DNA of 20,000 bases, taken from NCBI GenBank assembly GCA_023539445.1, contig JAKCEW010000001.1:32050-52049 (forward strand), written 5' to 3'. The notes below the pieces were generated by a model that worked only from the letters and a program-made list of their open reading frames with translations, was not told the DNA's origin and searched no databases. The stretch comes from Candidatus Terraquivivens yellowstonensis. GTDB taxonomy: Archaea; Thermoproteota; Nitrososphaeria_A; Caldarchaeales; Wolframiiraptoraceae. The number at the start of each line of letters is the position of its first letter. Within the stretch, counting starts at the first letter, position 1. Positions 3,803 through 17,790 of this stretch are shown piece by piece. Both the position numbers and the translations under genes were made by a program.

Positions 3803-4693
3803 GTGAGTGAGCCATTAGTTTATATCGATGGAAAGTTTTACCCGAAGTCTGAGGCAAAAATTTCCGTTTTTGATCACGGTTTACTTTATGGTGATGGAGT
3901 CTTCGAGGGTATAAGAGTTTACGACGGAGTAATATTTCTGCTGAAGGAGCATATAGATAGGCTATACAACTCAGCAAAGTTCATCAAACTTAACATACCC
4001 ATTTCTAAGGAAGAAATGATAGCCGCTGTCGTCGAGACTGTCAAAAGAAATCGTGCCAAAAATTCCTACATTAGACTCGTTGTAACAAGGGGTATGGGCG
4101 ACTTGGGTCTAGACCCCAGAAAGTGCTCTAAACCAAGCATAATAATCATAGTTGAGCAGATACAGTTGGTGGGCGGGGCGGCTAAAGAGAAAGGTGTATC
4201 CGCAATCATAGCATCAACGAGAAGAGATTCCGTCTCAGCGACTACGCATGAAGTCAAGTCGCTAAACTACCTCAACAGCATACTCGCAAAGCTAGAAGCC
4301 ATTGAGGCTGGTGCCGACATGGCCATAATGCTCGATAGTAGAGGATTCGTTTCAGAGGCGGAGGCGGCAAACCTCTTCATTGTTAGAGACGGCATTATAG
4401 CCACACCACCGACAACTGCAGGCATCTTGGACGGTGTGACAAGAAGGAGGATTATAAGACTAATACGTGAGCTTGGAATGGAGATTGTAGAAAGAGACAT
4501 AACGCCGTTTGAGCTAATTACCGCAACAGAAGTTTTCCTGACGGGGACGGGGGCCGAGATACTTCCGGTTGTTAAAATAAACGGCATACAAATTGGAGAC
4601 GGTGTACCTGGACCGATAACTAAAAAGATAATGCAAGAGTTTGAGAAAATCGTAAGGAGCGGGAAAGAAGGCGTAAAGGTTCAGTTTGAGTAA
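3803..4693 (+). CDS. ilvE: Branched-chain-amino-acid aminotransferase (PLP fold-type IV)
   Basis: YIDGKFYPKSEAKISVFDHGLLYGDGVFEGIRVYDG, catalytic Lys in THEVKSLNYLNSILAKLEA, and ELITATEVFLTGTGAEILPV. Confidence 0.93.
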   Translation: MSEPLVYIDGKFYPKSEAKISVFDHGLLYGDGVFEGIRVYDGVIFLLKEHIDRLYNSAKFIKLNIPISKEEMIAAVVETVKRNRAKNSYIRLVVTRGMGDLGLDPRKCSKPSIIIIVEQIQLVGGAAKEKGVSAIIASTRRDSVSATTHEVKSLNYLNSILAKLEAIEAGADMAIMLDSRGFVSEAEAANLFIVRDGIIATPPTTAGILDGVTRRRIIRLIRELGMEIVERDITPFELITATEVFLTGTGAEILPVVKINGIQIGDGVPGPITKKIMQEFEKIVRSGKEGVKVQFE

Positions 4694-4746
4694 TACTCTT
4701 ATTTTTTGTGAAACACTTTTAATCAACGACTAACATAGCAATATTG

Positions 4747-5877
4747 ATGAAATACTCTGCAGAATTTGAGGATGTTGTAAGAGCCGCGGAAGAGTTTGTA
4801 AATACTAGAACATTAGAGCCTGTAAAAAGCCAAATTCAGCATGCTAGGCTTTACGTGAGCGCTTTTAGGAGCTTAGATGTGTATAGACCCGTAATGGGTT
4901 TAATCCAGAATATTATGGGAACTGGTGAGCTGAAGGGTTGCGAGCAAGATATTAAAGTAATTCTTAGGGGACTTACCTTGCTGTATTCTGCAAGATACCA
5001 TCAAGTGTATCAAGACCATAGAATTTTTCCGTTACTTCATCAATATGTTCAAGCCCTAAAACTCGTTGAGGATGGGCTAGCCTCTGCAAAGGATTATTGT
5101 ACGGTCTTAAAAAACATCCATGAAAATTTTGTAAGCGCAGTCGAGCAAATCACGCTAGGGAATGGCGTATATGTAGTTAATTGGAAGAACGTCCCAGAAT
5201 CTCATTTCACACTTTACCAAAAAGTCGGATTGAAGATTGCCAGGTTGATTGCTAGCGAGCTCATAGGCCTTTACGTCGTTAAGGTTAGGGGTGAGGCGCC
5301 GCTACATTATCATCATTTCCTCGATGAACATCATTTTTTGCCAGAATATATTGAAGGGTTACATTATCTTGACGGTAAAGTATGCAAGACCACACAAACC
5401 GATATTCTCTACATAAAGAGAGGCCAAGTACACGGTTTTAAGAATAAAGGGGCAAACGAAGCGTCATTCGTGTTCATATGTGGTTCTAAGGAAACCGGCC
5501 CATGGGATTTTGTCCAAGATATAGAACTAGTTGATAAAGAATTTCCCGATGTTGGTTCTGATAATATTAATGATATCGGGGGGAGAGACCTATATAATGT
5601 CTTAGAAAAAGTTAGGAACTTTGAGCAAACTTTCCACGAAAGGCTCTCACCGAGCTACATGCGTCTATTCCAAGACGTGGTTAAGGTTTGCGTGGAATAC
5701 GTGCCGCCCACTCAAGACAAAGAGTTGATATGCTTTGTTGTGGAGGGTCACGGCATGGTTGAGATTGGTGGCAAGAACCATGACATAGGACCAGGAGATG
5801 CCTTCTTGCTTCTTTCCCACACTAAAGCAAAAATCTCAAGCCCATCCATGATACTCTATCAGTTTGGATATGAATGA
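4747..5877 (+). CDS. Uncharacterised protein with a helical N-terminal domain and two cupin-like domains
   Basis: First cupin contains GEAPLHYHHFLDEHHF...DILYIKRGQVHGFKNKG. Second cupin contains VVEGHGMVEIGGKNHDIGPGDAFLLLSHT. ATG at 4747 directly follows the TTG used in the track. Confidence 0.7.
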   Translation: MKYSAEFEDVVRAAEEFVNTRTLEPVKSQIQHARLYVSAFRSLDVYRPVMGLIQNIMGTGELKGCEQDIKVILRGLTLLYSARYHQVYQDHRIFPLLHQYVQALKLVEDGLASAKDYCTVLKNIHENFVSAVEQITLGNGVYVVNWKNVPESHFTLYQKVGLKIARLIASELIGLYVVKVRGEAPLHYHHFLDEHHFLPEYIEGLHYLDGKVCKTTQTDILYIKRGQVHGFKNKGANEASFVFICGSKETGPWDFVQDIELVDKEFPDVGSDNINDIGGRDLYNVLEKVRNFEQTFHERLSPSYMRLFQDVVKVCVEYVPPTQDKELICFVVEGHGMVEIGGKNHDIGPGDAFLLLSHTKAKISSPSMILYQFGYE

Positions 5878-6288: not shown

Positions 6289-7281
6289 TTGATAACAGGG
6301 GGCAGATGGTCTTTTGTGTCAATTAACCGATCCGGTTCATGGTTCCAAACTAATTCTGACGTAAAAAATCTCAGAGTTTATGATAAAATTCTAAAACTCA
6401 TCGGTAATACGCCCCTTTGTAAGCTTGAAAAAGTGCCCGCGAAACATTGCATAAAGGACAGCGTTAAGATTTACGCTAAACTTGAGTTTTTTAATCCAGG
6501 GGGCTCCATCAAGGATAGGGCTGCCCTTAGCATCATCTTGAGCGCCATAAAGAGTGGAGCGCTAACACCTGACAAAACAATACTTGATGCCACTTCCGGT
6601 AATATGGGAGTATCTTATTCGATGATTGCTGCGGTCCTCGGTTACAGATGCAAGATGCTGGTTCCGGCGAATACCAATGCTAAGAAGGTTGCTCTCATGA
6701 AAGCCTATGGAGCTGAAGTTTTGTATACGAATCCCGTGGATGGATTAGATGGAGCAATTAAAAAAGCCCGCGAGCTATATGAGCAAGATCCTAATGCATA
6801 CTTTTATGCGAACCAATACGACAACGAAGCAAACTGGATAGCACACTACATGACGACGGGGCCTGAGGTGATCAAACAAACTAAGGGAAGATTGACGCAT
6901 TTTATCGCCGGCGTCGGTACGTCTGGAACACTCATGGGAGCCGGTACGAAGTTAAAGGAGTTCAACCCAAATATAAAACTCGTAGAGGTCCAACCAGATT
7001 CACGTTTTCACAAGATCGAGGGGTTAAAACACATGGATACAAGCATTAGGCCGAAGATATACAATGAGAGCCTTAGCGATATGCGTATAAACGTATCCAC
7101 AAACGAGGCTTATGAGATGGTTAAAGAGCTTGCAAGGACTGAAGGGTTACTCGTCGGTATATCGTCCGGTGCCGTGCTTGCCGCTACCTTAAAAGTAGCT
7201 AGAGAGTTAAAGGAGGGGTTGTTGGTAGTTATCTTTCCGGATGGGGGAGAGAGGTACGTTGAAGAATGTTTCTGGGGATAG
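6289..7281 (+). CDS. Cysteine synthase-like PLP enzyme (CysK/CysM family)
   Basis: LIGNTPLCKLEKV, catalytic Lys in NPGGSIKDRAALSII, SGNMGVSYSM, GVGTSGTLMG, VGISSGAVLAA and IFPDGGERY. The true start may lie slightly downstream of the TTG. Confidence 0.93.
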   Translation: MITGGRWSFVSINRSGSWFQTNSDVKNLRVYDKILKLIGNTPLCKLEKVPAKHCIKDSVKIYAKLEFFNPGGSIKDRAALSIILSAIKSGALTPDKTILDATSGNMGVSYSMIAAVLGYRCKMLVPANTNAKKVALMKAYGAEVLYTNPVDGLDGAIKKARELYEQDPNAYFYANQYDNEANWIAHYMTTGPEVIKQTKGRLTHFIAGVGTSGTLMGAGTKLKEFNPNIKLVEVQPDSRFHKIEGLKHMDTSIRPKIYNESLSDMRINVSTNEAYEMVKELARTEGLLVGISSGAVLAATLKVARELKEGLLVVIFPDGGERYVEECFWG

Positions 7282-7311
7282 AAGTTCCAAACCTGACACA
7301 TATCTTAGCGC

Positions 7312-7794
7312 ATGTTCACACGACTTAGGCTTAAGATGGTTATATACTACTTTGGTCTCTTCGTTAAAGAATTGACGCTCATAATAAGCAAAACCAGTCT
7401 GGATGAAGTTATCAAACATGCTTTAGAGACCTATCCCGAAGAATGTTGTGGGCTTCTAGTAGGGAAAAAGGAAGGTGAGAAGAAGGTTGTTATTAAGGTT
7501 GTAAGGAGTAAAAACGTTTACGTGGGGGATAGAAGTAAGAGATACATGATTGATGCATTAGATATATATAATGCGGAAAAGGATGCAGAAAAACATGGGT
7601 TAATGCTTATCGGTGTGTACCACTCACATCCCAATTACCTTGCAAAACCGTCGGCCTACGATGCAGAAGCCGCTTGGTCCTCCATAAGCTATCTAATAGT
7701 TTCCATACGTGATAAGAGGTTTGATGAAGTAACCGCATGGGTTTTTGATAAGAAAAATGAAGAATTTCTTAAGGAAGACATAATAGTTGTTTGA
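7312..7794 (+). CDS. JAMM/MPN+ (Mov34/Rpn11-like) zinc metallopeptidase
   Basis: Complete JAMM motif: PEECCGLLVG (Glu) and HSHPNYLAKPSAYD (HxHx7Sx2D). Confidence 0.9.
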   Translation: MFTRLRLKMVIYYFGLFVKELTLIISKTSLDEVIKHALETYPEECCGLLVGKKEGEKKVVIKVVRSKNVYVGDRSKRYMIDALDIYNAEKDAEKHGLMLIGVYHSHPNYLAKPSAYDAEAAWSSISYLIVSIRDKRFDEVTAWVFDKKNEEFLKEDIIVV

Positions 7795-7882
7795 GTCTTT
7801 TCCATAACCCTTCTCTATTAGATTTTTCACCGTTGAAAACTATGGAAAACTTATTTTTATCTCCAAATCTTATAATAGCCTG

Positions 7883-9373
7883 ATGAGTGGCATACCGATT
7901 TCGCTTGGCTTCAACGCCATGCGCATTATTCTTTCGGGTTCGCAGCCAAGGGCATTACTGAAGAAAAGTTTGGAGAAATGCAGTAAATGCGGTAAGAGAC
8001 CAATAGACATGTTTTTTGATGAATGCCTTGGGATTAAGCAAAAGAAGTGCGTCACGTGTACATCAATCGTTTCTGCGCTTAAGTTCTTTACATTTATCAC
8101 CTTGAAGGCACTGAATACTAACCAAGAGGCATTGGTCAAAGCTTTGAGCGTATCATACTGGAGGAAGGGACTGACTTCAACAATAAAGGGTCTGGCCTGG
8201 TTTGGTGTAACGAAACCTTTTGTCACGGGTGCGCCGCTCTTTGTTGTCTGGAACTTTACGAATAGATGCAACCTCAGATGCAAGCATTGTTATCAAAACG
8301 CCAGTTCAAGCTTACCGGCAGAACTTACAACAAACGAGGCACTTCGTGTTGTTAAGGAACTCTCGGATGCAGACGTTACTTCTATTGCATTTTCAGGAGG
8401 GGAGCCGCTCGTCAGGCAGGATTTCTTCGAAGTCGCAGGGAGTGCGAGAGATAATGGCATGTATGTAACCGTTGCCTCAAACGGCACACTCATAACAAGG
8501 GATGTTGCCAAAAAGCTTGCAAAAACCGTTCATTATGCGGAAATAAGCCTAGACGGCATAAACCCAAGGACGCATGACGAGTTTAGGGGAATTCCTGGTA
8601 GCTGGGATAGGGCGGTTTCTGCAATTAAATATTTAGTGGAAGAGGGCGTTGCTGTGGGTGTTGCCACAACTGTAACCAAACATAACATATCAGAGATACA
8701 AAAAATGGTTGACTTTGTCGAGGGGCTCGGAGCAGATTATTTCATATGCTTCAATTTTATACCGACAGGCAGGGCTACAAAAATCCTAGAAGACGACCCT
8801 ACACCACAGGAAAGAGAAGAGATCTTGAAGTACTTGTATAAGAGGCTGGTTTTCAATATGCTTCAGAATAAAAAGTTGAAAATCTTCACGACGGCGCCCC
8901 AGTTTGCTAGGGTCGGACTCGAGATGAAGGAAAAAATCATGGAGGAAATTTGTACAATCAACTTAACAGCTCCATGTGTTGAGCCCGTAGTTCCTACGAC
9001 TCATTATGCAAACATTCCAGGCATAACACCGGAAGTCGCCGAATTCATTGGTGGTTGCGGCGCGGGCAGAGTTTATGCGGCGATAAGCCCTGAAGGCGAC
9101 GTTCAACCATGTGTCTTTATGCCCATAAAACTTGGCAATCTAAGACATGAAAAATTCGAGGAAATATGGCTCAATTCGAGCGTTCTTAACGAGCTTAGAG
9201 ATAGGAAAAAGCTGAAAGGCGGATGTGGAACCTGTGCATATAAGTTCATTTGCGGAGGCTGTAGGGCCAGGGCCTACGGATATTTCGGAGACTACTTGAT
9301 GCCGGATCCGGGTTGTATTAGGAGAGTTTATGAAAAACCGATCCATACACTACAGCTCCAAATGAGGCTTTAA
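7883..9373 (+). CDS. Radical SAM/SPASM-domain protein with an extra N-terminal Cys-rich region
   Basis: Radical SAM motif CNLRCKHC. SPASM-type cysteines CGAGRVYAAISPEGDVQPC...CGTCAYKFICGGCRARAY...DPGC. N-terminal CSKCG...CLG...CVTC. Confidence 0.92.
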   Translation: MSGIPISLGFNAMRIILSGSQPRALLKKSLEKCSKCGKRPIDMFFDECLGIKQKKCVTCTSIVSALKFFTFITLKALNTNQEALVKALSVSYWRKGLTSTIKGLAWFGVTKPFVTGAPLFVVWNFTNRCNLRCKHCYQNASSSLPAELTTNEALRVVKELSDADVTSIAFSGGEPLVRQDFFEVAGSARDNGMYVTVASNGTLITRDVAKKLAKTVHYAEISLDGINPRTHDEFRGIPGSWDRAVSAIKYLVEEGVAVGVATTVTKHNISEIQKMVDFVEGLGADYFICFNFIPTGRATKILEDDPTPQEREEILKYLYKRLVFNMLQNKKLKIFTTAPQFARVGLEMKEKIMEEICTINLTAPCVEPVVPTTHYANIPGITPEVAEFIGGCGAGRVYAAISPEGDVQPCVFMPIKLGNLRHEKFEEIWLNSSVLNELRDRKKLKGGCGTCAYKFICGGCRARAYGYFGDYLMPDPGCIRRVYEKPIHTLQLQMRL

Positions 9374-9388
9374 AAGATAATGAAGAAT

Positions 9389-9509
9389 GGCTTGCCAGCA
9401 CGTGGCCCTCGCCTGGGCTCTCGCACCAGACTACCTCCACGCGATGGGGGCTTAGCTTCCGGGTTCGGAATGGGTCCGGGCGTCTCCCCCCATCTATGGC
9501 CGGCAAGCC
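9389..9509 (-). rRNA. rrf: 5S ribosomal RNA
   Basis: The reverse complement reads GGCUUGCCGGCC...GCCCGGACCCAUUCCGAACCCGGAAGCUAAGCCCCCAUCGCGUGGAGGUAGU...GUGCUGGCAAGCC. It has the universal 5S core (CCGAACxCGGAAGCUAAGCC) and a perfect 8-bp terminal helix GGCUUGCC/GGCAAGCC. Length is 121 nt. Confidence 0.97.
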
Positions 9510-9531
9510 GAGTTTATCTTGCTAAACCCTT

Positions 9532-9541
9532 TCTAAAAAAT
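9532..9541 (-). promoter_or_regulatory. Candidate TATA-like element for the 5S rRNA gene
   Basis: A/T-rich TTTTTTAG on the minus strand, about 23-32 nt upstream of the inferred 5S 5' end, in the gap after the stop codon at 9543. Confidence 0.45.
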
Positions 9542-9542
9542 C

Positions 9543-9986
9543 TTATGCGGCATTCTCCAGAAAAGAAAGACCTTTGTCCGTTATTCTATATTTAAAGGGC
9601 TTGCCCGTCCTTGTGACGAGCCCTTTTATATAAAGGTTCTTTAAAATTCTGGAGACATGTTCACGACTTCTGTTGAGCTTAATGCTAAGCTCTGAAGATG
9701 AGGAAGGGCCTTCGGTTTTTAAAAGCTCTAATACCCTATAACATGTTTGGTTAAAATCCTCTTCAGCTACTTTTTCAAGGGTATTATGGGTGCCGTTTGA
9801 CACATTCAGCCTGTCCTCTATCCGGCTGAGTGTCTCTTTTATCTTTGCCAGCTCGTTCGTGATTGCGTCATAAGAACTAGGATTTGACGTCACTCCTTTA
9901 TGCATATTAGCTTTGCGTAGCAGAACGTAAAATATCATCGTCTGTGTAACAAACAACGTAACAAAGATAAGGACCAGCGTATCCAT
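9543..9986 (-). CDS. Membrane-anchored winged-helix (MarR/ArsR-like) DNA-binding protein
   Basis: N-terminal TM segment DTLVLIFVTLFVTQTMIFYVLL, coiled-coil-like linker ITNELAKIKETLSRIEDRLN, and C-terminal wHTH VLELLKTEGPSSSSELSIKLNRSREHVSRILKNLYIKGLVTRTGKPFKYRITDKG. Confidence 0.8.
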   Translation of the reverse strand: MDTLVLIFVTLFVTQTMIFYVLLRKANMHKGVTSNPSSYDAITNELAKIKETLSRIEDRLNVSNGTHNTLEKVAEEDFNQTCYRVLELLKTEGPSSSSELSIKLNRSREHVSRILKNLYIKGLVTRTGKPFKYRITDKGLSFLENAA

Positions 9987-9987
9987 C

Positions 9988-10380
9988 TTACTTCTTAACC
10001 TCCGTAAGCTTGATTAGCAATCTAGATATCGCTTCAGGATCTCTGCCGTTTAGAGTCTCAGAAGCCTGCAAGAACCAAGAGTACGTCGGCAACTCAAACA
10101 ATCCAAGGTAGCCTAGTAGCAACACTGTATAAAGTGACTTGGTTATGTTGTCCATTGCCTGTTTCTTTGTCCTTAAAAACGAGCCCTTCGAGACCCCGCG
10201 GAGCTTTGCTTTTTCGTCCACCGTAAGCTTTGCTCCCTTGCTTTCTAGCAAGAGGTCTATGAGTAGCGTCTCAAGCTGTTTCTTGGTAAGGGAACACCTT
10301 TCACTGAGTAGCTTGAATATGACGTCATTCTCCCAATACTGTTTTATCTCATCAAGGAGCGTAACATCCAATTGCATCAC
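9988..10380 (-). CDS. Conserved-looking archaeal hypothetical protein with HTH-like segment, operonic with the wHTH protein
   Basis: 130 aa ORF ending 1 nt before the next start (TAA-G-ATG). Segment LTVDEKAKLRGVSKGSFLRTKKQAMDNI resembles a helix-turn-helix. Confidence 0.6.
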   Translation of the reverse strand: MMQLDVTLLDEIKQYWENDVIFKLLSERCSLTKKQLETLLIDLLLESKGAKLTVDEKAKLRGVSKGSFLRTKKQAMDNITKSLYTVLLLGYLGLFELPTYSWFLQASETLNGRDPEAISRLLIKLTEVKK

Positions 10381-10883: not shown

Positions 10884-12050
10884 ATGTTTAAACGTACCCG
10901 TTTGGGGCGTAGGGACGTGACCGATAGAAAGATTCGAATAAATCAACCCGTAATCGACGAGACTGAGATAGAGGAAGTTTCTGAGGTCCTAAGAACGGGC
11001 ATGCTTACCACATGGCACGGTAGCGGTAATAAGGTCAGCGAATTTGAAAAAATGTTCGCATCATATATAGGTGTTGAGTACGCAATTGCTGTGAATTCTG
11101 GAACAGCAGCCCTCCACACTGCTCTCGCGGCATGCGGTATAGGACATGGTGATGAGGTCATAGTACCTGCAATGACTTTTGTGGCCACGGCAAACGTTGT
11201 GCTCATCCAAGGTGCTAAGCCTGTATTCGTGGACGTAGACCCTGTAACGCTCTGTATGGATCCTGAAAAGTTCCAAAATGCTATAACAGATAACACGAAG
11301 GCGGTAATACCCGTGCACGTTTACGGATGCCCTGCCGAGATGGATGCCATAATGGATATCGCTGAAGATAAGGGGATAGTCGTTATCGAGGATGCCGCTC
11401 AGGCGCATGGAGCACTCTATAAAGGTAGAAAAGCTGGTAGCATTGGCCATATGGGCTGCTTTAGCTTCTTCGCCAGCAAGAACATAACGACTGGTGAGGG
11501 GGGAATCATAACCACCAATGATGCTGAATACGCTAGGAAGTGCAGGCTCTTTAGAACGCATGGCCAAGAAGAAGCACATATGGCTGTGATGCCGGGACTA
11601 AATTATAGGATGACAGAGTTCGCGGCTGCTATCGGTCTTGTACAACTTTCGAAACTTGATAGGTTAAATGCCATTAGAGCAAGGAATGCGGAAATCTTAG
11701 GAAGTTATCTCAAAGGCATACCCAACGTCGTCACTCCGACCTTTCCTTCTTACGTTAAACCCTCATACTACGTTTACACAATAAGGGTTAAGGGCGGATC
11801 TAAAAAGTCAAGAGATGCACTACAGAAGTATCTCATGGAAAACGGTATTGAGGCGACAGTTTATTGGCCAAATCCGGTCCACTTACATCCGCTCTACATG
11901 GGACTTTATGGTTACCAGAGGGGCTTACTGCCCGTATCCGAGGAAGCTTCGGATGAAGTGCTTTCCTTACCGGTACATCCTAAAGTTAGCACCGATGAGT
12001 TACATTACATCGCTGAAAAAATCGGAGAATTCTTCGTAAGCGACTTTTAG
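10884..12050 (+). CDS. DegT/DnrJ/EryC1/StrS-family (sugar) aminotransferase
   Basis: NSGTAALHTALAACGIGHGDEVIVPAMTFVATANVV, IEDAAQAHGALYKGRKAG, catalytic Lys in FSFFASKNITTGEGG, and GLNYRMTEFAAAIGL. Confidence 0.94.
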   Translation: MFKRTRLGRRDVTDRKIRINQPVIDETEIEEVSEVLRTGMLTTWHGSGNKVSEFEKMFASYIGVEYAIAVNSGTAALHTALAACGIGHGDEVIVPAMTFVATANVVLIQGAKPVFVDVDPVTLCMDPEKFQNAITDNTKAVIPVHVYGCPAEMDAIMDIAEDKGIVVIEDAAQAHGALYKGRKAGSIGHMGCFSFFASKNITTGEGGIITTNDAEYARKCRLFRTHGQEEAHMAVMPGLNYRMTEFAAAIGLVQLSKLDRLNAIRARNAEILGSYLKGIPNVVTPTFPSYVKPSYYVYTIRVKGGSKKSRDALQKYLMENGIEATVYWPNPVHLHPLYMGLYGYQRGLLPVSEEASDEVLSLPVHPKVSTDELHYIAEKIGEFFVSDF

Positions 12051-12448
12051 CGTCGCTCCACGATTATTTTATCACCCTCTATCTTTATCCAATCGCCACT
12101 CTTAAATTTGCTAGTATCAACGCAATCGACGGTAGGTATGTCACTTATTATTGCACCGACAGCAACTATAGGTTCGCATCTCTGATTTATTATCGCATTT
12201 GGCGCCACGCCCTTTTTCTTCAACCTGTAGATTATGTAGGAGCCGACGGTCGAGCCCTTTCCATGCGGAAAGACCAGTACCTTTCCAGCTATGCTCTTTC
12301 CTTCCAGCTCATGTCCCTTTTCCTTGATTATTCCCGTATCAGGGTCAACGCCCCCATAGAAGGATATCGGTTGCGATGAAACTAACGCTTCACCTTCGGC
12401 CCTTCCCCCTTTTATGACCCTACCCCTCAGTTCTAAAATAACACTCAT
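12047..12448 (-). CDS. AcnX swivel (small) subunit, DUF126: probable phosphomevalonate dehydratase small subunit. The track start at 12601 is an over-extension.
   Basis: MSVILELRGRVIKGGRAEGEALVSSQPISFYGGVDPDTGIIKEKGHELEGKSIAGKVLVFPHGKGSTVGSYIIYRL. ATG at 12448-12446 overlaps the upstream stop as ATGA. Confidence 0.9.
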   Translation of the reverse strand: MSVILELRGRVIKGGRAEGEALVSSQPISFYGGVDPDTGIIKEKGHELEGKSIAGKVLVFPHGKGSTVGSYIIYRLKKKGVAPNAIINQRCEPIVAVGAIISDIPTVDCVDTSKFKSGDWIKIEGDKIIVERR

Positions 12449-13626
12449 TTGGTCGCTTCCCTGAGGCACTCTTCTGTCGAAAGTAATCTCACGCACAAAT
12501 TGTTTAAGTTTCTTGAATACCATGCCCCTTTGGCCGAGTTCGTAGCGACGGCCGTTACCCCTAAATCCTTTACAGGCGCGACTATCGGGCAGGTATCGCA
12601 TACAACCGTACCTCCAGCAGCTTCTATAACCTGCGTTATGCCCAGCTTATCCGCCTCCAGCTTGACACTCTTCGAGCAGCATAACCAAAGCTTTTTTCTA
12701 ACATTTTTCCCGGCTAAGAATGATGCGATCCTTTTAAGTTCCATGAGTGAAAGATGGGGACAGCCAAGGAATATTAAGTCCGGATCCACTTCACTGGCAT
12801 ACTCTTCCTTGACACTCTTTATATCAGATTCCGTAACAGTGAGTCTCTCCATGGATCTATCTACATACTCTCCAGCTTCCGGTGTTATACCGTCCACGTG
12901 AAACATGGGCACACCACCGACGCTGGCCAACGCCGCGCCCAATGCCTTTAATTCGTCTGGCTCAGCATGAAGTATACCCCTGAAAAGAGGTATACCGTCG
13001 CCGACTAATCTTCCTACGATCATGCCAAGGCAAGCAAACTCAAACTCCCCATTTGGTTGTGGTACCCTAACCTCCACGGTTGGTTGACGGTTCTCTTTGA
13101 GATGTAGACCATAGAAGGGCGTCCTACCAGTTATCGCGGCCGCTAAAGCGCTTATTCCGCTCTCTCTATTTGTCTTAGCACCTATGACTGAATTTGCATA
13201 AACCACCGCCGAGCTCTCACTCCACGCGATGTGGTCGCCCATTCTAGGCTCGTTGCCAACAAGATATGGTGTACATGTACAAGTTATCTTGACGCCCATC
13301 CTTCTATACACATCTATCACCCTTAGCTGATTCTCCGCGAACTCCCTATCAATGCCCATTAAGCTCCATTTGTCCAAATCCATGCCCGCAGGATTAAGTG
13401 TCGTCTGCACGAGAACTCTGCCATCGGATGCAAGTTCTTCCAAAAACTCTAGTCCATCCTCACCCACGTTAGCATAGGATACACCGGATATGTGAGCGCT
13501 CGTAATAGGGACTAACTTCTCAGCGTCGTAAATTTTTCCAAGCGCCACAAGTATTTCCATAGCTTTTTGCGCGGCATATCCGAGCTCGCCGACAAGCATG
13601 CGCTCCTCCTCTTTTGAAAGGTACAT
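12445..13626 (-). CDS. AcnX catalytic (large) subunit, DUF521: probable phosphomevalonate dehydratase large subunit
   Basis: Aconitase-X features ITCTCTPYLVGNEPRMGDHIAWSESSAVVYANSVIGAKTNRE, LWLCCSKSVK and VVCDTCPIVAP. Followed by the DUF126 partner. Confidence 0.93.
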   Translation of the reverse strand: MYLSKEEERMLVGELGYAAQKAMEILVALGKIYDAEKLVPITSAHISGVSYANVGEDGLEFLEELASDGRVLVQTTLNPAGMDLDKWSLMGIDREFAENQLRVIDVYRRMGVKITCTCTPYLVGNEPRMGDHIAWSESSAVVYANSVIGAKTNRESGISALAAAITGRTPFYGLHLKENRQPTVEVRVPQPNGEFEFACLGMIVGRLVGDGIPLFRGILHAEPDELKALGAALASVGGVPMFHVDGITPEAGEYVDRSMERLTVTESDIKSVKEEYASEVDPDLIFLGCPHLSLMELKRIASFLAGKNVRKKLWLCCSKSVKLEADKLGITQVIEAAGGTVVCDTCPIVAPVKDLGVTAVATNSAKGAWYSRNLNNLCVRLLSTEECLREATK

Positions 13627-13659: not shown

Positions 13660-14958
13660 TTACTTTATGTAGTCCTCAATCTTTATACTTTCTTCTCCTG
13701 GTATCTTGGCTTTTTTAAAGAGCTTCGGGTCGGCGTCTAAAGGCAATGTTGCATCTATTCCGGCTTTGCATGTCTTTCGGGTGTACTGGTCGGCAGATGG
13801 GTCCAGAGAGGAGCCATACTCGTTAGGTTTGAGCACTAGGCATTTGTCCATCTGCACCCTTGTCGCCAAGACCCATTCCAGCTCAGCTGGGTCATCGATG
13901 TTTATATCCTCGTCAACTACGAGGACGTGTTTTAGACTACCGTGTCCCTTAAATGCCGCCTCTATGGCCTTTTTTCCGTCATCCGCATGCCTTTTCCTTA
14001 TTTTTACGACGGCGTTAAACCACTTACAACCACCAGGCGTCAATCTAACATCCAAACATTCGCAAACTTTTCCAACCTCCTTGTATATCGCTACCTCTCT
14101 CGGTGTGCCCATTAGGATTTTATGCTCGCTACCTGCCAGCAATACTGCTTGGAATATTGGGTCACGTCTCATAGTTACACACTCTATCTCGATTACCCTC
14201 TGCTTTCTCACAACATCGTATGTGCCCGTTATGTCAATTATTGGACCCTCGTCTGCCCATTCATCCGTTACGACACCTTCCATCACAACCTCACAGTCTG
14301 CGGGCACGAGTAGGTCATTCGTCACACATTTCGTATATCTCATCTTCCTTAACGAATTTGCTATATCTAACTCGCTAACGCCTATCTTCCAAGTAACGGC
14401 CGCAGCTATCATGAAGGCAGGATGGTTCCCGAAAGTTATCGCAACGTTTCTATTGCCCCTACGTATAAATTCATCGAGATGTCTCGGGAGTATTCTTGCA
14501 ACGACCCTGTTCTTATCTATGAGCATTAATCTGTGGAAGCTAGCATTAAAACCATACTCCTTGTCATGAGCGATAATTATGCTGGCGGTAGTATAAGGCC
14601 CACCATCATACTGGCCGAAAAGAAGGAATGGAAACTTTCTCAGGTCAGGGTTTCGATCGATTACTTGCTGACATGGTGCATCTTCAACGATTTCACCCTT
14701 GCTTGGGTTTTCTATGGCATCATTCAGCTTTCTGAGTATATCGTCCTCGCTCACACCTAATGCCTTTGCTAAAATCCTCCTACTACCGCAAATGTTCGCC
14801 GCTAGCTTGAACCCCTCACATTCTTTGATCTTGTGAAAAAGCACGGGCCTTCCGTCGAGCTTCTTCATTATTGCAGCTGCCTCAAATTTCGTCGAGACCG
14901 GTTTTACGATGTTGATGAGCTCTCCTTCCTTCTCAAGCTCGCTCAAGAAATCCCTCAT
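13660..14958 (-). CDS. UbiD-family decarboxylase: probable anhydromevalonate phosphate decarboxylase
   Basis: MRDFLSELEKEGELINIVKPVSTKFEAAAIMKKLDGRPVLFHKIK, NASFHRLMLIDKNRVVARILPRHLDEF and ITFGNHPAFMIAAAV. ATG at 14958-14956 overlaps the UbiX stop as ATGA. The track uses 14967. Confidence 0.92.
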   Translation of the reverse strand: MRDFLSELEKEGELINIVKPVSTKFEAAAIMKKLDGRPVLFHKIKECEGFKLAANICGSRRILAKALGVSEDDILRKLNDAIENPSKGEIVEDAPCQQVIDRNPDLRKFPFLLFGQYDGGPYTTASIIIAHDKEYGFNASFHRLMLIDKNRVVARILPRHLDEFIRRGNRNVAITFGNHPAFMIAAAVTWKIGVSELDIANSLRKMRYTKCVTNDLLVPADCEVVMEGVVTDEWADEGPIIDITGTYDVVRKQRVIEIECVTMRRDPIFQAVLLAGSEHKILMGTPREVAIYKEVGKVCECLDVRLTPGGCKWFNAVVKIRKRHADDGKKAIEAAFKGHGSLKHVLVVDEDINIDDPAELEWVLATRVQMDKCLVLKPNEYGSSLDPSADQYTRKTCKAGIDATLPLDADPKLFKKAKIPGEESIKIEDYIK

Positions 14959-15503
14959 TCTCCCCACCTTTTGTATAAATTGTGCTCAATTCCGAGGATT
15001 TCCAAAATCCTTCCGACTATAAAGTCTATAAGGTCTTGAATGGTCTTTGGTGAGTGGTAGAAAGTTAAAACCGGCGGTAACACGACAGCTCCTGCCCTAG
15101 TTGCCTTGAGCATATTGATGATGTATGGTTCGGCCAAAGGTGTTTCGCGGGGTACTAGAATAAGTTTCCTTCTCTGCTTAAGAGAGACGAGTGCCGCTCT
15201 TACTATCAAGTTTTCTTCCATACCGTTGGCAATTGCGGCAAGTGTCTTCATGGAGCACGGCACGACTACCATGCCATCAACGGGAAAAGAGCCGCTTGAA
15301 AGCGGAGCCTCGAATTCGTCCTCCCGGAAAATTCTGTCTGCATATAACTTTATCTTTTCTAGGTTTGCTTCGGCCCGGACGAGGGCCTCGCCGTTCTTGG
15401 AAAGAATCAAGTAAACTTGATGTTTACCTGCTTTCAAGACTTCCAACAATCTCTCAGCTATTGGTGCACCTGAGGCTCCCGTTATCGCTACAACAACCCT
15501 CAT
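14955..15503 (-). CDS. ubiX: UbiX-family flavin prenyltransferase (prenyl-FMN synthase)
   Basis: MRVVVAITGASGAPIAERLLEVLK, VVVPCSMKTLAAIANGMEENLIVRAALVSLKQRRKLILVPRETPL and AGAVVLPPVLTFYHSPKTIQDLIDFIVGRILE. Confidence 0.95.
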   Translation of the reverse strand: MRVVVAITGASGAPIAERLLEVLKAGKHQVYLILSKNGEALVRAEANLEKIKLYADRIFREDEFEAPLSSGSFPVDGMVVVPCSMKTLAAIANGMEENLIVRAALVSLKQRRKLILVPRETPLAEPYIINMLKATRAGAVVLPPVLTFYHSPKTIQDLIDFIVGRILEILGIEHNLYKRWGE

Positions 15504-15546: not shown

Positions 15547-17016
15547 TCATGTCGTGAAATCTGACGACAGAATTGTCTCTCCTTTTTTCGTCAAAACGTA
15601 AACTTTCTTTTTTCTTTCTGATGGGCTTCCTTCGTTTACAACTGTTATCAAGCCAGCGGCCAAAAGTTCCTGCAGATGCTGATACATTGACGGTAACGTG
15701 ATTGCCAGACCGAATTTTTGTGTAAGAGTTTTCCATAAAAGATACCCATGACTTGGATGTTTTTGTAAAATTTTTAGTATTAAGCGCTTTGTCCTTCCTA
15801 GTCGACTATCTAACGAGGAGGCGAGCATGAATGCTATAGGAGTCTCCGCGGCCGAGTGCTTTATTAAACTCTTGACTGCTGCTGGATCCTTTAAACCTGC
15901 ACCCGTTATTATGCACACAACTTTGTCGGACCTTTCTATTATTCCGTCTTCTAAGGCAACTCTAAGAGCCGCTATTGTTGAGGCTGCGGCTGGCTCAGCA
16001 AATATGCCCTCACATTTGGCTAAAAGTCTTGTGGCTTCGAGTATTTTATTCTCGGATATTGCTAGAGCATAACCATTCGATTCCCTTAAAGCTTTCAAGC
16101 AAAGTTCCCCTAACATAGGTTGCCTGACTGCTATGTCATGGAACGTCATCCCAAAATCTTTAGGTTTGGCAGGTTTATCAAGATTCTTTCTGAATGCTTC
16201 AACTATAGGCGAGCAACTTTTGGCCTGAACACCTAGAAGTCTTGAATGTACACCGTCAATAAGCCCAACATAGCTTAATTCCCTCAGAGCTTTCCATATC
16301 ATCGATAAATGTCCACCCTCGCCGACGGGCACGACAAAGAACTCGGGAGGGGACCAATGAAGTTGCTCGCAGACCTCATATCCAGTAGTTTTTATTCCTT
16401 CAAGAAAAAACGGGTTTGTCACAGATACTGTGTACTCTCCTTCGCATGGATTCTCCAAAAACTTAAGGGCGTCGTCATATGTCTTAACAAAGTTTATTTC
16501 AGCACCACAAACGACGGCCTGATAAAGCTTACCTAATTCGACGCCTAGTGTTGTATAAATCCTGCAGCTTAAACCGGCCTTTGCTGCATATGCAGCAACC
16601 GAGGCACCCAAGTTTCCCCTGCTCACGCACTTAAGTGCGCGATAACCCATACTCTTTGCCTCTGTTGCCTCGATAGCAACTCCTCTGTCCAAGAAAGATC
16701 CAGTAGGATTTACCGTTTCGTTTTTCAAATACAAGTTCTTGATCCCAAGCTCCTCTCCCAGCCTTTCAGCTTTCTGGAGGAAAGTACCACCCTCACCCAA
16801 AGATATAATAAAGTCGTCTTTCATGAGGGGCATGAGAAACGAGTACTTCCACATACTCGAAGGGGTTTTAGCAAGTTCCTCCCTGCTTATGATAGATGAA
16901 AGTTGATCATAATCGTACTCGATAAGTGCTTGGCCGCCACAACTTGGACACCGAATTGGGTTTTTTCTGTTATCAAAGTGTTTGCCGCATCTTATGCATG
17001 AAAGCCTGAAGCCCAT
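15547..17016 (-). CDS. Threonine-synthase-like fold-type II PLP enzyme homologue (catalytic Lys missing) fused to a C-terminal PadR-like winged helix
   Basis: N-terminal zinc ribbon CIRCG...CPSCGG and TS-like core SLGEGGTFL...NETVNPTGSFLDRG...EGIFAEPAAASTIAALRVAL...TGAGLKDP. C-terminal wHTH LILKILQKHPSHGYLLWKTLTQKFGLAITLPSMYQHLQELLAAGLITVVNEGS...KKVYVLTKKGE. Confidence 0.88.
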   Translation of the reverse strand: MGFRLSCIRCGKHFDNRKNPIRCPSCGGQALIEYDYDQLSSIISREELAKTPSSMWKYSFLMPLMKDDFIISLGEGGTFLQKAERLGEELGIKNLYLKNETVNPTGSFLDRGVAIEATEAKSMGYRALKCVSRGNLGASVAAYAAKAGLSCRIYTTLGVELGKLYQAVVCGAEINFVKTYDDALKFLENPCEGEYTVSVTNPFFLEGIKTTGYEVCEQLHWSPPEFFVVPVGEGGHLSMIWKALRELSYVGLIDGVHSRLLGVQAKSCSPIVEAFRKNLDKPAKPKDFGMTFHDIAVRQPMLGELCLKALRESNGYALAISENKILEATRLLAKCEGIFAEPAAASTIAALRVALEDGIIERSDKVVCIITGAGLKDPAAVKSLIKHSAAETPIAFMLASSLDSRLGRTKRLILKILQKHPSHGYLLWKTLTQKFGLAITLPSMYQHLQELLAAGLITVVNEGSPSERKKKVYVLTKKGETILSSDFTT

Positions 17017-17039
17017 ACGGCCTATATGTAGGTTGAAGG

Positions 17040-17048
17040 TTATATATT
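17040..17048. promoter_or_regulatory. Shared bidirectional TATA element between the divergent genes
   Basis: TTATATATT lies 24-32 nt from the minus-strand ATG (17016) and 23-31 nt from the plus-strand ATG (17071), so it is essentially central in the 54-bp spacer. Confidence 0.55.
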
Positions 17049-17070
17049 TTGTTTTTGAAGGAACTTTGGC

Positions 17071-17790
17071 ATGCAGCGCCGTAGCGTACTCATAGCAAAG
17101 TTAGCGGTCTTTACGTCGTTAGTCGCCGTTGCCACGATGGTCCTATCTATTTACGTACCAGCCACTAGAGGTTACTTCAATTTGGGTGAAACTATGATAT
17201 ACTTCACGGCGCTCACGATGGGGCCCGGAATAGCAGCATTTGCAGGCGGCGTAGGTTCCATGATAGCCGACTTAGCACTAGGTTACTACTATTATGCCCC
17301 TGCAACATTACTCATAAAGGCAGCCGAAGGAGCACTTGTCGGATACCTTATCAAGAAAGCTCCGAAGAAGGGTGGATGGCAGCTTGCAGTGGCGTCTTAC
17401 GCGCTCGTTGCTGGATATTTTGTGCTCATACTTCTAATAGGCATTATGCTGTTTGTTGGTGAGGTTGAAGTTTCTATATTCCCGATTGGTGAAGGCGCGC
17501 AATCGTTCATCTTCACGATCGCACCCTATTCGTGGATCGGTTTGGCGGCCGCAGCTATAGCCACGCCAGTCTACTTTGTTGTTAAAGAAAAAGGCTACGA
17601 AGGTTGGTTAATACTTTCTCTGCTCCTTGGCGGACTTATCATGGTCTCAGGATACTTTGTATATGAGCAGTTCTTTTTGAACGTCGCTGCTTTGGCCGAG
17701 ATACCGGTGAACCTTGGACAGTCGATAATAGGAACAGCAGTCGCGATACCACTCTACAAGGCGTTCAAAAAGCTGTATCGAGTTGGCTAA
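17071..17790 (+). CDS. ECF-type transporter substrate-capture (S) component-like membrane protein
   Basis: Multiple TM segments. N-terminal GYFNLGETMIYFTALTMGPGIAAFAGGVGSMIADLALGYYYYAPATLLIKAAEGALVGYLIKK is characteristic of archaeal ECF S components. Confidence 0.8.
   Translation: MQRRSVLIAKLAVFTSLVAVATMVLSIYVPATRGYFNLGETMIYFTALTMGPGIAAFAGGVGSMIADLALGYYYYAPATLLIKAAEGALVGYLIKKAPKKGGWQLAVASYALVAGYFVLILLIGIMLFVGEVEVSIFPIGEGAQSFIFTIAPYSWIGLAAAAIATPVYFVVKEKGYEGWLILSLLLGGLIMVSGYFVYEQFFLNVAALAEIPVNLGQSIIGTAVAIPLYKAFKKLYRVG

Follow-up and report, generated by a model that had tools for sequence, protein, structure and literature searches.

Results

Domain architecture of the fusion protein

The window analyzed here, a stretch of DNA of 20,000 nucleotides taken as a whole, contains an intact open reading frame on the minus strand (15547..17016) that encodes a 489-aa protein with matches to both the PALP and the PadR families of Pfam. 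Four parts were distinguished in this protein: from the N-terminus, a zinc ribbon, a fold-type II PLP domain that resembles threonine synthase and is complete, a linker predicted as disordered, and a winged helix of the PadR type. The overall pLDDT of its AF2 model is 87. The N-terminal zinc ribbon of the CxxC...CxxC type (residues 5-29; 16930..17004, minus strand) was recognized in the translation LSCIRCGKHFDNRKNPIRCPSCGGQ. Its Pfam matches are weak in the window protein, and its cysteines C7, C10, C23, and C26 are nearly invariant across the fusion family; the ribbon is also present in the lysine-bearing archaeal-type threonine synthases (ThrC), as the model NF006050 spans residues 4-393.

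The fold-type II PLP-enzyme domain (residues 71-372; 15901..16806, minus strand) matches PF00291 (PALP) with E=4e-60, and the threonine synthases 6CGQ, 2ZSJ, and 2D1F are the top Foldseek matches, with a target-normalised TM of ~0.84. We propose this part of the protein as a ligand-sensing domain. It is followed by a flexible interdomain linker (residues 384-404; 15805..15867, minus strand), in which pLDDT falls below 50 at residues 384-391 and 396-404, and by the PadR-type winged helix-turn-helix (wHTH) domain (residues 408-484; 15565..15795, minus strand). The PF03551 (PadR) match covers residues 413-483 with E=7e-11 and 42.4 bits, the gathering cutoff being 27. A profile constructed from 22 family tails matches more than 50 solved PadR-family structures, with the best match to 5DYM (E=3e-14). 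In the AF2 model, the segment 408-484 has the order alpha1-alpha2-alpha3-beta-beta plus a C-terminal helix, with pLDDT mostly 82-92 (helices 408-419, 424-434, and 441-453; strands 457-462 and 470-475; helix 477-484), which is the predicted topology of a winged helix-turn-helix with a C-terminal dimerisation helix. The recognition helix LPSMYQHLQELLA (15658-15696, minus strand) was located in the translation, and its YQHL is nearly invariant.

Both halves of the architecture had been proposed in the first-pass annotation of this DNA, and both hold: the threonine-synthase-like fold-type II domain is complete, and for the C-terminus the quoted residues are present and the suggested comparison with PadR is positive. 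The two domains, PALP and PadR, occur together in 43 of 43 diverse family members; since the catalytic lysine is also absent family-wide (see below), this architecture is no chance feature.

Loss of the Schiff-base lysine and conservation of the cofactor pocket

Alignment of the translation to 2D1F, 2ZSJ, and 6CGQ places Leu109 (codon 16690..16692, minus strand) at the position of the Schiff-base lysine: the motif NPTGSFKDR of the solved threonine synthases reads NPTGSFLDR at nt 16684-16710. The absence of this residue had been noted at first reading, and it proved to be nearly perfectly linked to the tail across hundreds of homologues. None of 117 close homologues has the lysine. Among representatives at 50% identity, 67 of the 69 with a tail do not have it, whereas 76 of the 79 without a tail do; in a divergent branch, 101 of 107 tailed proteins are devoid of it, as are all 79 genes that were found through the DNA motif alone. 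In total, the lysine is missing in ~95% of tailed homologues and retained by nearly all tail-less relatives. Leu, Ile, Val, Met, or Arg is seen in its place in the fusion family.

The open literature on threonine-synthase active-site residues was searched and no paper listing them was found; conservation of the pocket was judged by a data-driven comparison with the closest archaeal-type ThrCs, not by a literature residue list. Out of the 54 positions conserved in ThrC, 41 are kept in the fusion family, 12 are partly kept, and a single one, the lysine itself, is lost. The kept residues include G232, G234, N135, D110, R111, T371, and G372, and the PLP-phosphate loop is retained in the sensor domain. 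Residues Y165 and D294 are specific to the fusions. An impression that several pocket loops are degraded, gained from bacterial enzymes, was gone against the closest archaeal-type ThrCs. Within-group identity is 0.40 for the Lys-less fusions and for the Lys-bearing ThrCs alike, so the Lys-less domain appears to be under purifying selection comparable to that on the enzymes.

In PLP enzymology, loss of this lysine makes catalytic activity very unlikely, and, judging from its sequence, the fusion protein is very unlikely to convert O-phosphohomoserine to threonine. The earlier description of the domain as inactive stands as far as the loss of the lysine suggests it, and is to be refined in that the loss appears to be one targeted change with the rest of the cofactor pocket conserved. 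Its generality is also bounded by a minor tailed subclade, in which the key position is Lys or Arg and the canonical operator described below is missing; gene context could be read for P0284 and P0274, whereas P0168 and P0201, tailed proteins that retain the lysine, lie on contigs of insufficient length.

Phylogenetic distribution and current annotation

Members of the fusion family were found in Aigarchaeota, Bathyarchaeia, Asgard archaea, Nitrososphaeria, and Thermoplasmata. A cultured host was sought starting from a member of the Thermoprotei branch, and all matches were MAGs. No monophyly is claimed for the tailed group: in a midpoint-rooted NJ tree built from PALP-domain distances, the tailed proteins do not fall into one clean clade, and nearest-neighbour coherence, used in place of the tree, was 67/69 and 74/77.

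The database entry P0001, 100% identical to the window protein, carries the name "threonine synthase", and all named family members encountered are labelled either in this way or as "pyridoxal-phosphate dependent enzyme". The window protein passes the equivalog cutoff of TIGR00260 (thrC; 188.3 bits, cutoff 167.1) and scores 300.7 bits versus a cutoff of 303 with NF006050. NF004170 (PRK05638, "threonine synthase"; an equivalog of 442 positions) is the sole curated model that aligns end to end, over residues 5-484 with the wHTH tail included, and it is the best full-length match of all family members tested. The name of this model implies an enzyme. All fusion members tested score below its cutoff of 421 bits: the window protein with 268 bits, and the others with 202-267. 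In two MAGs, the fusion occurs together with a separate tail-less ThrC that has the SFKDR motif (L012 with L077, and L072 with L060), and threonine-pathway genes do not recur near the fusion, which speaks against its being the enzyme of this pathway. A second PALP gene of the window (6289-7281) was considered as the real ThrC and rejected as CysM-like.

Genomic context of the fusion genes

The gene divergent from the fusion gene (17071..17790, plus strand) encodes an S-component of an ECF transporter from PF07155, the PdxU/HmpT family (E=4e-25). The only solved sequence relative of this protein is 4HZU_S (HmpT/PdxU2), with weak similarity (E=1e-7). Both PdxU and PdxU2/HmpT belong to PF07155 (PMC9997740), and the substrate of HmpT is pyridoxamine (PMC4860826). 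From its sequence, the S-component of the window is a candidate B6-vitamer transporter, and it is the predicted main target of the fusion regulator. The family PF07155 takes in riboflavin and other S-components too.

An ECF S-component gene of PF07155 or a pdxS-pdxT pair adjoins the fusion gene in ~80% of those genome loci whose upstream sequence is long enough, versus none of 29 ThrC control loci. The S-component gene is directly upstream and divergent in 25 loci, and pdxS-pdxT is divergent in 6-7. In total, S-component genes were counted in 31/49 genome loci and 84/102 metagenome loci against 1/32 ThrC controls, PdxS in 7 genome and 5 metagenome loci, and PdxT in 7 genome and 3 metagenome loci, the latter two with 0/32 in the controls; adjoining pdxST is limited to ~8-14% of loci. 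A ThiL/HypE-like gene of the PurM family recurs next to the S-component gene in 17 loci, its product scoring 87 bits with the ThiL model at a cutoff of 184. Thiamine genes are found near three sites, ThiC and ThiW in L166 and YuaJ in L110 and L129. No genes of the threonine/aspartate family were detected among the recurrent neighbours of the fusion loci. Because no threonine-pathway genes recur nearby, the broad list of ligands considered at first can tentatively be narrowed, on the strength of gene context, towards B6 vitamers and away from threonine and phosphohomoserine.

Predicted operator and putative shared promoter

The spacer between the two divergent genes (17017-17070), singled out in the first-pass annotation, contains a conserved palindromic predicted operator. 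This near-palindrome, CCTACATATAGG (17021..17032, without strand), with the half-sites CCTA/TAGG, ends 4 nt before the ATG of the fusion gene and is the sole site with at most one mismatch in the window. The consensus of the family is (G)CCTATATATAGG(C), and the site is conserved across phyla. All 14 exact copies of CCTATATATAGG in 888 kb of loci are located upstream of fusion genes, and a metagenome scan with the DNA motif only returned 102 sites, 84 of which have a Lys-less fusion gene as the next gene. Sites were also found at targets without an adjoining regulator, namely the S-component gene in L015, the ecfAA'T operon in L072, pdxST in L171 and L187, and S-component genes in L102, L129, L166, and L179. 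A Ser/Thr-to-Ala change in the recognition helix coincides with loss of the canonical site.

Upstream of the operator, at a distance of 7 nt, is a TATA-like box, ATATATAA (17040..17047, minus strand); each of the two divergent start codons is ~24-27 nt away from it. Among 28 loci, the spacing between box and operator is 7 nt in 21 and 6 nt in another 2. By analogy with general archaeal promoter geometry, the box probably serves both genes as a bidirectional promoter element. TBP could also bind the palindrome itself, at its central TATATA.

Discussion

Proposed mechanism of regulation

The architecture, the family-wide loss of the lysine, the conserved neighbours, and the conserved site were established computationally. 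Judged by these comparisons, the fusion is most likely a widespread archaeal switch for vitamin B6 uptake and synthesis genes. We assign a probability of about 0.6 to the reading that it is a one-component B6-responsive transcription factor and not an enzyme, that is, a threonine-synthase paralogue with predicted sensing of PLP or B6 that acts at the palindrome on a PF07155 S-component gene or on pdxS-pdxT.

The ligand, the binding of DNA by the fusion protein, and the direction of control are what we infer in the following mechanism. A threonine-synthase paralogue would have lost its Schiff-base lysine (Leu109 here) while its cofactor pocket stayed otherwise preserved; reversible binding of PLP or a related B6 vitamer without catalysis is therefore probable. 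Dimerisation, known from threonine synthases and PadR proteins, is probable for the enzyme-like domain as well, and the palindrome would then be contacted by the pair of PadR winged helices at the C-termini of the dimer. This palindrome is placed 7 nt from the presumed shared TATA-like box inside the 54-bp spacer. At its own gene, the palindrome would lie between the TATA box and the start codon, and autorepression is expected because this is the usual location for archaeal repression. At the divergent target, the palindrome would be just upstream of the BRE/TATA, so that basal factors may be either blocked or recruited. With the PdxU/HmpT-family S-component as the putative target in this window and pdxS-pdxT in other lineages, B6 uptake and synthesis would be tuned to cofactor supply, as with bacterial PdxR.

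Alternative explanations

By the annotations of NCBI and JGI, the protein would be an enzymatically active threonine synthase extended at its C-terminus; all database names, the passed TIGR00260 cutoff, and the NF006050 score (300.7 versus 303) point the same way. This is extremely unlikely, given that the catalytic lysine is Leu here and absent in ~95% of the family, that two MAGs encode an SFKDR ThrC besides the fusion, that the added segment is a genuine PadR wHTH, and that the regulon-like neighbours and the operator are both absent at ThrC loci. It is also quite improbable that the enzyme-like domain is a dimerisation scaffold without a small-molecule ligand, or that the palindrome belongs to the basal promoter, as a specialised element not bound by the fusion. 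A scaffold-only role is disfavoured because it would not need cofactor-pocket residues conserved as strongly as in active enzymes. As to the promoter element, the TATATA core is TATA-like and its spacing to the second TATA-like box is fixed; however, the exact 12-mer is confined to fusion loci within 888 kb, and the GCC/GGC flanks together with the covariation of helix and operator argue for a specific dimeric reader.

The sensor might still recognise an amino-acid-type ligand carried over from threonine synthase (threonine, O-phosphohomoserine, or a PLP-amino-acid adduct) and couple B6 supply to amino-acid metabolism: Lys-less mutants of PLP enzymes bind external aldimines tightly, and the whole pocket save the lysine is conserved, including the substrate-side S-x-G-N loop. 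We regard this as unlikely in view of the recurrent neighbours, which are all B6- or transport-related and include no threonine/aspartate-family genes. Rather unlikely, too, is the same architecture and operator in the service of thiamine-precursor salvage, with HMP or HMP-P as the ligand. HMP-P chemically resembles PMP and PNP, and HmpT, whose substrate is historically ambiguous, was originally predicted as a hydroxymethylpyrimidine carrier. Such salvage could also account for ThiC/ThiW beside the L166 site, the YuaJ-type thiamine transporters in L110 and L129, and the PurM-superfamily gene by the S-component gene in 17 loci. However, thiamine genes are present in just 3 of 151 loci versus PdxS in 12, and pdxS directly abuts the site; the PurM-like protein stays under the ThiL cutoff (87 versus 184 bits), the measured ligand of HmpT is pyridoxamine, and the sensor is derived from a PLP enzyme with its PLP-phosphate loop retained.

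Significance

For the B6-responsive transcription factor, the idea of an archaeal analogue of MocR/PdxR, raised in the first-pass annotation, gains support from the linkage of tail and lysine, the coexistence with ThrC in two MAGs, the neighbours of PdxR-regulon type, and the conserved palindrome. A bolder joint reading, to which we give somewhat less than even odds, is that the fusion is the first archaeal vitamin B6 regulator, pan-archaeal from Asgard to Thaumarchaeota, which would have arisen independently of PdxR from a PadR wHTH and a threonine-synthase paralogue. With removal of the lysine as the sole change, a cofactor once bound covalently, PLP, would have become a reversibly sensed ligand; one palindrome by a shared bidirectional TATA box would repress the own gene and control the divergent target, and the regulon would mark missing parts of B6 salvage, namely an S-component similar to PdxU and, as a candidate vitamer kinase, the PurM-superfamily protein.

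No description of the fusion, of its operator, or of any archaeal B6 regulator was found in the open literature searched. The family would fill a gap, as PdxR (MocR) controls B6 homeostasis in bacteria and is reported absent in Archaea. If it is a regulator, it would represent a clean natural case of an enzyme becoming a sensor by a single targeted residue loss. The analysis supplies a testable operator and regulon for major uncultured lineages, Asgard archaea included, and points to candidate archaeal genes for B6 transport and salvage, which were flagged as poorly known by a 2023 comparative study (PMC9997740). It also exposes a systematic misannotation of the family as an enzyme; therefore, reconstructions of threonine prototrophy from MAGs can be distorted.

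Comparison with known regulatory systems

Archaeal-type ThrCs (NF006050; TIGR00260) share with the fusion ~37-43% identity over residues 1-385, the same fold, and the N-terminal zinc ribbon, and 53 of the 54 conserved positions are kept or partly kept; the fusion differs in its added C-terminal PadR domain and in its B6 and transport gene context. Like the short single-domain PadR proteins (LmrR, 5DYM, 4ESB), the fusion has a wHTH with one C-terminal helix, and its palindromic site suits a dimer. In known PadR proteins, ligands bind where two wHTH domains meet in the dimer or in a small domain at the C-terminus, whereas the fusion has an enzyme-derived domain of ~390 aa ahead of the wHTH, presumably giving both sensing and dimerisation. 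An ATGT-N8-ACAT type of PadR operator is known, from which the predicted operator GCCTATATATAGGC differs.

The riboflavin regulator RbkR is an archaeal one-component regulator that combines a vitamin-pathway enzyme domain with an HTH (PMC5397151). RbkR and the thiamine regulator ThiR are similar to the fusion as archaeal one-component proteins with an enzyme domain and an HTH that control biosynthesis and transporter genes. Their domains are unrelated to those of the fusion, and the kinase of RbkR is still active, whereas the fusion appears catalytically dead.

In bacteria, PdxR regulons are made up of pdxST, pdxK, and pdxU; Archaea are reported to have no MocR regulators (PMC5320631). In common with MocR-type PdxR, the fusion has a wHTH joined to a domain derived from a PLP enzyme, matching types of associated genes, often divergent (pdxS-pdxT and a B6 transporter of PF07155), and likely autoregulation. 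The DNA-binding domain of PdxR is an N-terminal GntR domain, whereas that of the fusion is a C-terminal PadR domain, with no GntR match; the sensor of PdxR is of fold-type I (aminotransferase), whereas that of the fusion is of fold-type II (threonine synthase, PF00291); and MocR proteins keep the Schiff-base lysine that the fusion has lost. The archaeal fusion is an independent invention and not a homologue of PdxR.

Domain architecture of the fusion protein

The first-pass annotation had proposed a ligand-sensing regulator composed of a PLP-like domain and a PadR winged helix-turn-helix (wHTH), and its coordinates and quoted sequence proved correct: the gene at 15547-17016 (minus strand) is an intact open reading frame encoding 489 amino acids. 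The N-terminal part of the protein contains a CxxC...CxxC zinc ribbon (residues 5-29), and is followed by a fold-type II PLP-enzyme domain (residues 71-372; full-length Pfam match to PF00291, E=4e-60), a linker that is disordered in the AlphaFold2 model (residues 384-404), and a PadR domain (residues 413-483; PF03551, 42.4 bits versus a Pfam gathering cutoff of 27). A profile of 22 family tails matched more than 50 solved PadR-family structures, with 5DYM as the best match (E=3e-14), and the AlphaFold2 model (43-sequence alignment, mean pLDDT 87) displays an alpha1-alpha2-alpha3-beta-beta winged helix with a C-terminal helix over residues 408-484. The Foldseek neighbours of the large domain are the threonine synthases 6CGQ, 2ZSJ, 2D1F and 1UIM (target-normalised TM ~0.84). 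Thus, both the C-terminal PadR wHTH and the complete threonine-synthase-like domain are borne out, as is the claimed absence of the Schiff-base lysine: alignment to solved threonine synthases, which share the motif NPTGSFKDR, places Leu109 (codon 16690-16692, minus strand) at this position in the NPTGSFLDR of the window protein.

Loss of the Schiff-base lysine across the family

Absence of the lysine is a trait of the whole fusion family and not of the window copy alone. Both Pfam domains are present in all 120 closest database homologues, and lysine occurs in none of the 117 motif-matching proteins among them, being replaced by Ile (53), Val (32), Leu (26), Met (3), Thr (2) or Ser (1). We also searched 1.8 billion representatives clustered at 50% identity exhaustively and sorted the best 150 by alignment: 67 of 69 proteins with the PadR tail lack the lysine, and 76 of 79 tail-less relatives possess it, the three exceptions being truncated or fragmentary sequences that group with the tailed proteins. 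The lysine is likewise missing from 101 of the 107 tailed proteins in a branch of greater divergence (Arg 41, Met 27, Ile 23, Val 4, Leu 3, other 3, Lys 6), and it is found in none of the 79 readable downstream genes at the 102 loci that were identified solely from the DNA motif.

A tailed subclade (database entries P0168, P0201, P0269, P0274, P0276, P0279, P0284 and P0285; loci L031, L044 and L047) differs at the Schiff-base position, where it carries Arg in ~47 clusters and Lys in 8. Its recognition-helix N-cap is Ala rather than Ser/Thr, the canonical palindrome is absent, and a PF07155 gene lies downstream and co-directional instead of divergent; the subclade may preserve an ancestral state or an intermediate one, or it may use a different operator.

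The domain was compared at 54 positions for which conservation reaches 85% or more among the nearest lysine-bearing threonine synthases. The fusion family keeps 41 of them, partly keeps 12 and has lost one, the lysine itself; the fusion proteins still have the Gly-rich loop (G232, G234), N135, D110, R111 and T371-G372. Averaged over pairs, identity is 0.40 within the fusion group and 0.40 within the enzymes, hence the lysine-less domain is under purifying selection comparable to that of the enzymes. The loss is a single targeted change in an otherwise preserved pocket, not decay, and such conservation is hard to square with a domain that serves as a scaffold only. The database reading of the protein as a threonine synthase fails as well: it passes the TIGR00260 cutoff (188.3 versus 167.1 bits) but is missing the defining lysine. 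Since this NCBIfam equivalog model ('thrC') accepts a lysine-less protein, the misannotation is uniform, with every named homologue (P0001-P0380) labelled 'threonine synthase' or 'pyridoxal-phosphate dependent enzyme'. A second equivalog model, NF004170 ('threonine synthase'), aligns over the wHTH tail, so that its seeds may themselves be regulators. The fusion protein is very probably not the threonine synthase of the cell; a tailed lysine-less copy and a tail-less SFKDR enzyme occur together in two metagenome-assembled genomes (MAGs; loci L012 and L077, L072 and L060). An internal contrast is provided by the second gene of the PLP-enzyme family in the window (6289-7281), a CysM-like protein that keeps its lysine (GGSIKDR).

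Screening a single genome for each GTDB species showed that the closest named relatives of the window protein belong to Ca. Terraquivivens (Aigarchaeota; 76-79% identity). The fusion was also found in Bathyarchaeia, Thor-, Hermod-, Heimdall- and Promethearchaeota, Nitrososphaerales, Nitrosopumilales, Brockarchaeota, Hadarchaeota, Methanomethylicota, Thermoplasmata and Thermoproteales.

Genomic context and the proposed link to vitamin B6

The divergent neighbour of the window gene (17071-17790, plus strand) encodes an ECF-transporter S-component (ECF-S; PF07155, E=4e-25). Among 49 fusion loci, the same membrane-protein family is immediately upstream and divergent in 25, and in 6-7 others this slot is held by pdxS-pdxT, both above NCBIfam equivalog cutoffs. 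In total, ECF-S or pdxS-pdxT occurs at ~35 of 44 fusion loci having more than 1 kb upstream and at none of 29 control loci with lysine-bearing threonine synthases. Pooled genome and metagenome counts at fusion-site loci are 31+84 for ECF-S, 7+5 for PdxS, 7+3 for PdxT and 9+8 for a PurM/AIR-synthase-like protein; in 32 controls they are 1, 0, 0 and 0. A PF07155 gene also follows the lysine-retaining tailed proteins P0284 and P0274, therefore the association with the transporter extends to the tailed family as a whole.

Only three B6 transporters have been characterised in prokaryotes, and PdxU and PdxU2/HmpT among them belong to PF07155/COG4720 (PMC9997740). Among solved structures, the window S-component shows sequence similarity only to 4HZU chain S (E=1.3e-7), which is HmpT/PdxU2 and from which pyridoxamine was extracted as the ligand (PMC4860826). 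In bacteria, PdxR regulons are made up of pdxST, pdxK and pdxU (PMC5320631).

The PurM/AIR-synthase-superfamily protein (PF00586 and PF02769) is encoded beside the ECF-S or fusion gene at 17 loci (L015, L021 at 4108-5118, L029, L030, L032, L033, L044, L047 and others) and at none of the 32 controls. Its scores fall short of the HypE (101 versus 252 bits) and ThiL (87 versus 184 bits) cutoffs; speculatively, it could represent an ATP-dependent enzyme of vitamer salvage that has gone unrecognised.

Directly 3' of the window fusion gene, the minus strand also encodes UbiX (14955-15503), UbiD (13660-14967) and the AcnX large subunit (12445-13626) and swivel-domain protein (12047-12601). We take this set to match the modified archaeal mevalonate pathway, that is, phosphomevalonate dehydratase and anhydromevalonate-phosphate decarboxylase with its prenyl-FMN supplier; it is not conserved beside the fusion in the other lineages compared. 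The CysM-like cysteine synthase gene is followed by one for a JAB/MPN-domain protein (6289-7794, plus strand), a pairing reminiscent of sulfur-carrier (CysO-type) cysteine biosynthesis. With IlvE (3803-4693) and a DegT-type aminotransferase (10884-12050), four PLP-fold proteins are encoded inside 20 kb.

Predicted operator

Across phyla, the upstream regions have the pattern ATATATAA-N7-(G)CCTATATATAGG(C) in common. In the window, the TATA-like box ATATATAA lies at 17040-17047 (minus strand) and the palindrome CCTACATATAGG at 17021-17032, 4 nt before the fusion ATG. The 54-bp divergent spacer (17017-17070) has one TATA-like element, which lies ~24-27 nt away from each start codon; this arrangement points to a single bidirectional TATA box that drives two leaderless transcripts.

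The exact 12-mer has 14 copies in 888 kb of loci, all located in the 250 nt that precede a fusion gene; the count expected from shuffles is 0. Allowing one mismatch, 26 sites are near a fusion gene and 5 elsewhere; one of the latter (L015) precedes a displaced ECF-S gene by 30 nt, and three lie within coding sequence, in keeping with a chance expectation of 2.4. The fifth belongs to the Heimdallarchaeota MAG locus L072, in which an ecfA-ecfA'-ecfT operon (7540-9991) just 3' of the fusion gene has its own near-consensus site, CCTAAATATAGG, ~140 nt upstream, and the energising module may be part of the regulon in this lineage. At 21 of 28 loci, exactly 7 nt separate box and palindrome; from palindrome end to start codon, the median distance is 11 nt. 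The pdxS-linked palindrome variants are two copies of CCTTATGTATAGG (L018, L020) and CCCATATATGG (L025, L027).

As a protein-independent check, metagenome contigs were scanned with the composite DNA pattern alone. A fusion-like gene is directly downstream of 84 of the 102 sites, and the divergent upstream gene encodes ECF-S at 69 and PdxS at 5. Stand-alone sites lacking an adjacent fusion gene are located at pdxS-pdxT (L171, L187) or ECF-S (L102, L129, L166, L179), thus the site tracks the targets and not the regulator alone. Two metagenome loci (L136, L167) carry the motif with identical flanks among ORFs that by eye resemble phage structural genes, with no fusion, ECF-S or pdx gene nearby; these copies are probably unrelated matches.

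All loci with a recognisable site encode Ser/Thr at the recognition-helix N-cap ([ST][VIM]YQHL), and 7 of 7 loci without a site encode Ala. This pattern, which is confounded by shared ancestry, fits a PadR domain that reads the palindrome.

Proposed mechanism and alternative ligands

We conclude that the fusion protein is a regulator and not an enzyme (probability about 0.9). It is quite likely that the palindrome is its operator and that ECF-S and pdxST form its regulon, and we favour, with moderate confidence, a B6 vitamer as its ligand. The protein would act as a dimeric one-component regulator whose enzyme-derived domain holds the vitamer, most likely PLP; since the lysine is gone, binding would be non-covalent. 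The two PadR wHTHs of the dimer would bind the palindrome. Relative to its own gene, the palindrome is flanked by the TATA box on one side and the start codon on the other, which is the classic archaeal repression position, at which recruitment of RNA polymerase is blocked; hence the fusion protein is expected to repress its own gene. For the divergent ECF-S or pdxS gene, the palindrome abuts the BRE side of the seemingly shared TATA box, so the effect on the target could be repression or activation. Of these elements, the domain architecture, lysine loss, neighbouring genes and site are computational findings; the ligand, the binding to DNA and the direction of control are inferences.

An amino acid or a PLP adduct is a less likely, though conceivable, ligand for the sensor. 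A thiamine/HMP ligand and regulon has some support from ThiC and ThiW near the site in L166, YuaJ/ThiT-type transporters near the L110 and L129 sites, and the recurrent ThiL/HypE-like PurM-family gene; however, thiamine genes are present in 3 of 151 loci versus 12 of 151 for pdxS, and the PurM-like protein is under the ThiL cutoff. In L166, L129 and L110 the thiamine genes sit on the far side of the operator sites, and their presence may reflect vitamin-gene clustering or a wider regulon.

Comparison with known regulators

In the openly accessible full-text literature, no description of the fusion, its operator or any archaeal B6 regulator was found. The family is widely distributed and wrongly labelled, and a defined operator and ligand set make it open to direct testing. 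MocR regulators are reported to be absent in Archaea (PMC5320631). The fusion protein functionally resembles the MocR-type PdxR but shares neither its domain families, nor its domain order, nor its lysine, and is therefore an analogue rather than a member. By sequence and fold it belongs to the PadR family, in which its enzyme-derived sensor is unprecedentedly large. We rate it as an enzyme-derived one-component vitamin regulator, a design paralleled by the archaeal RbkR and ThiR.
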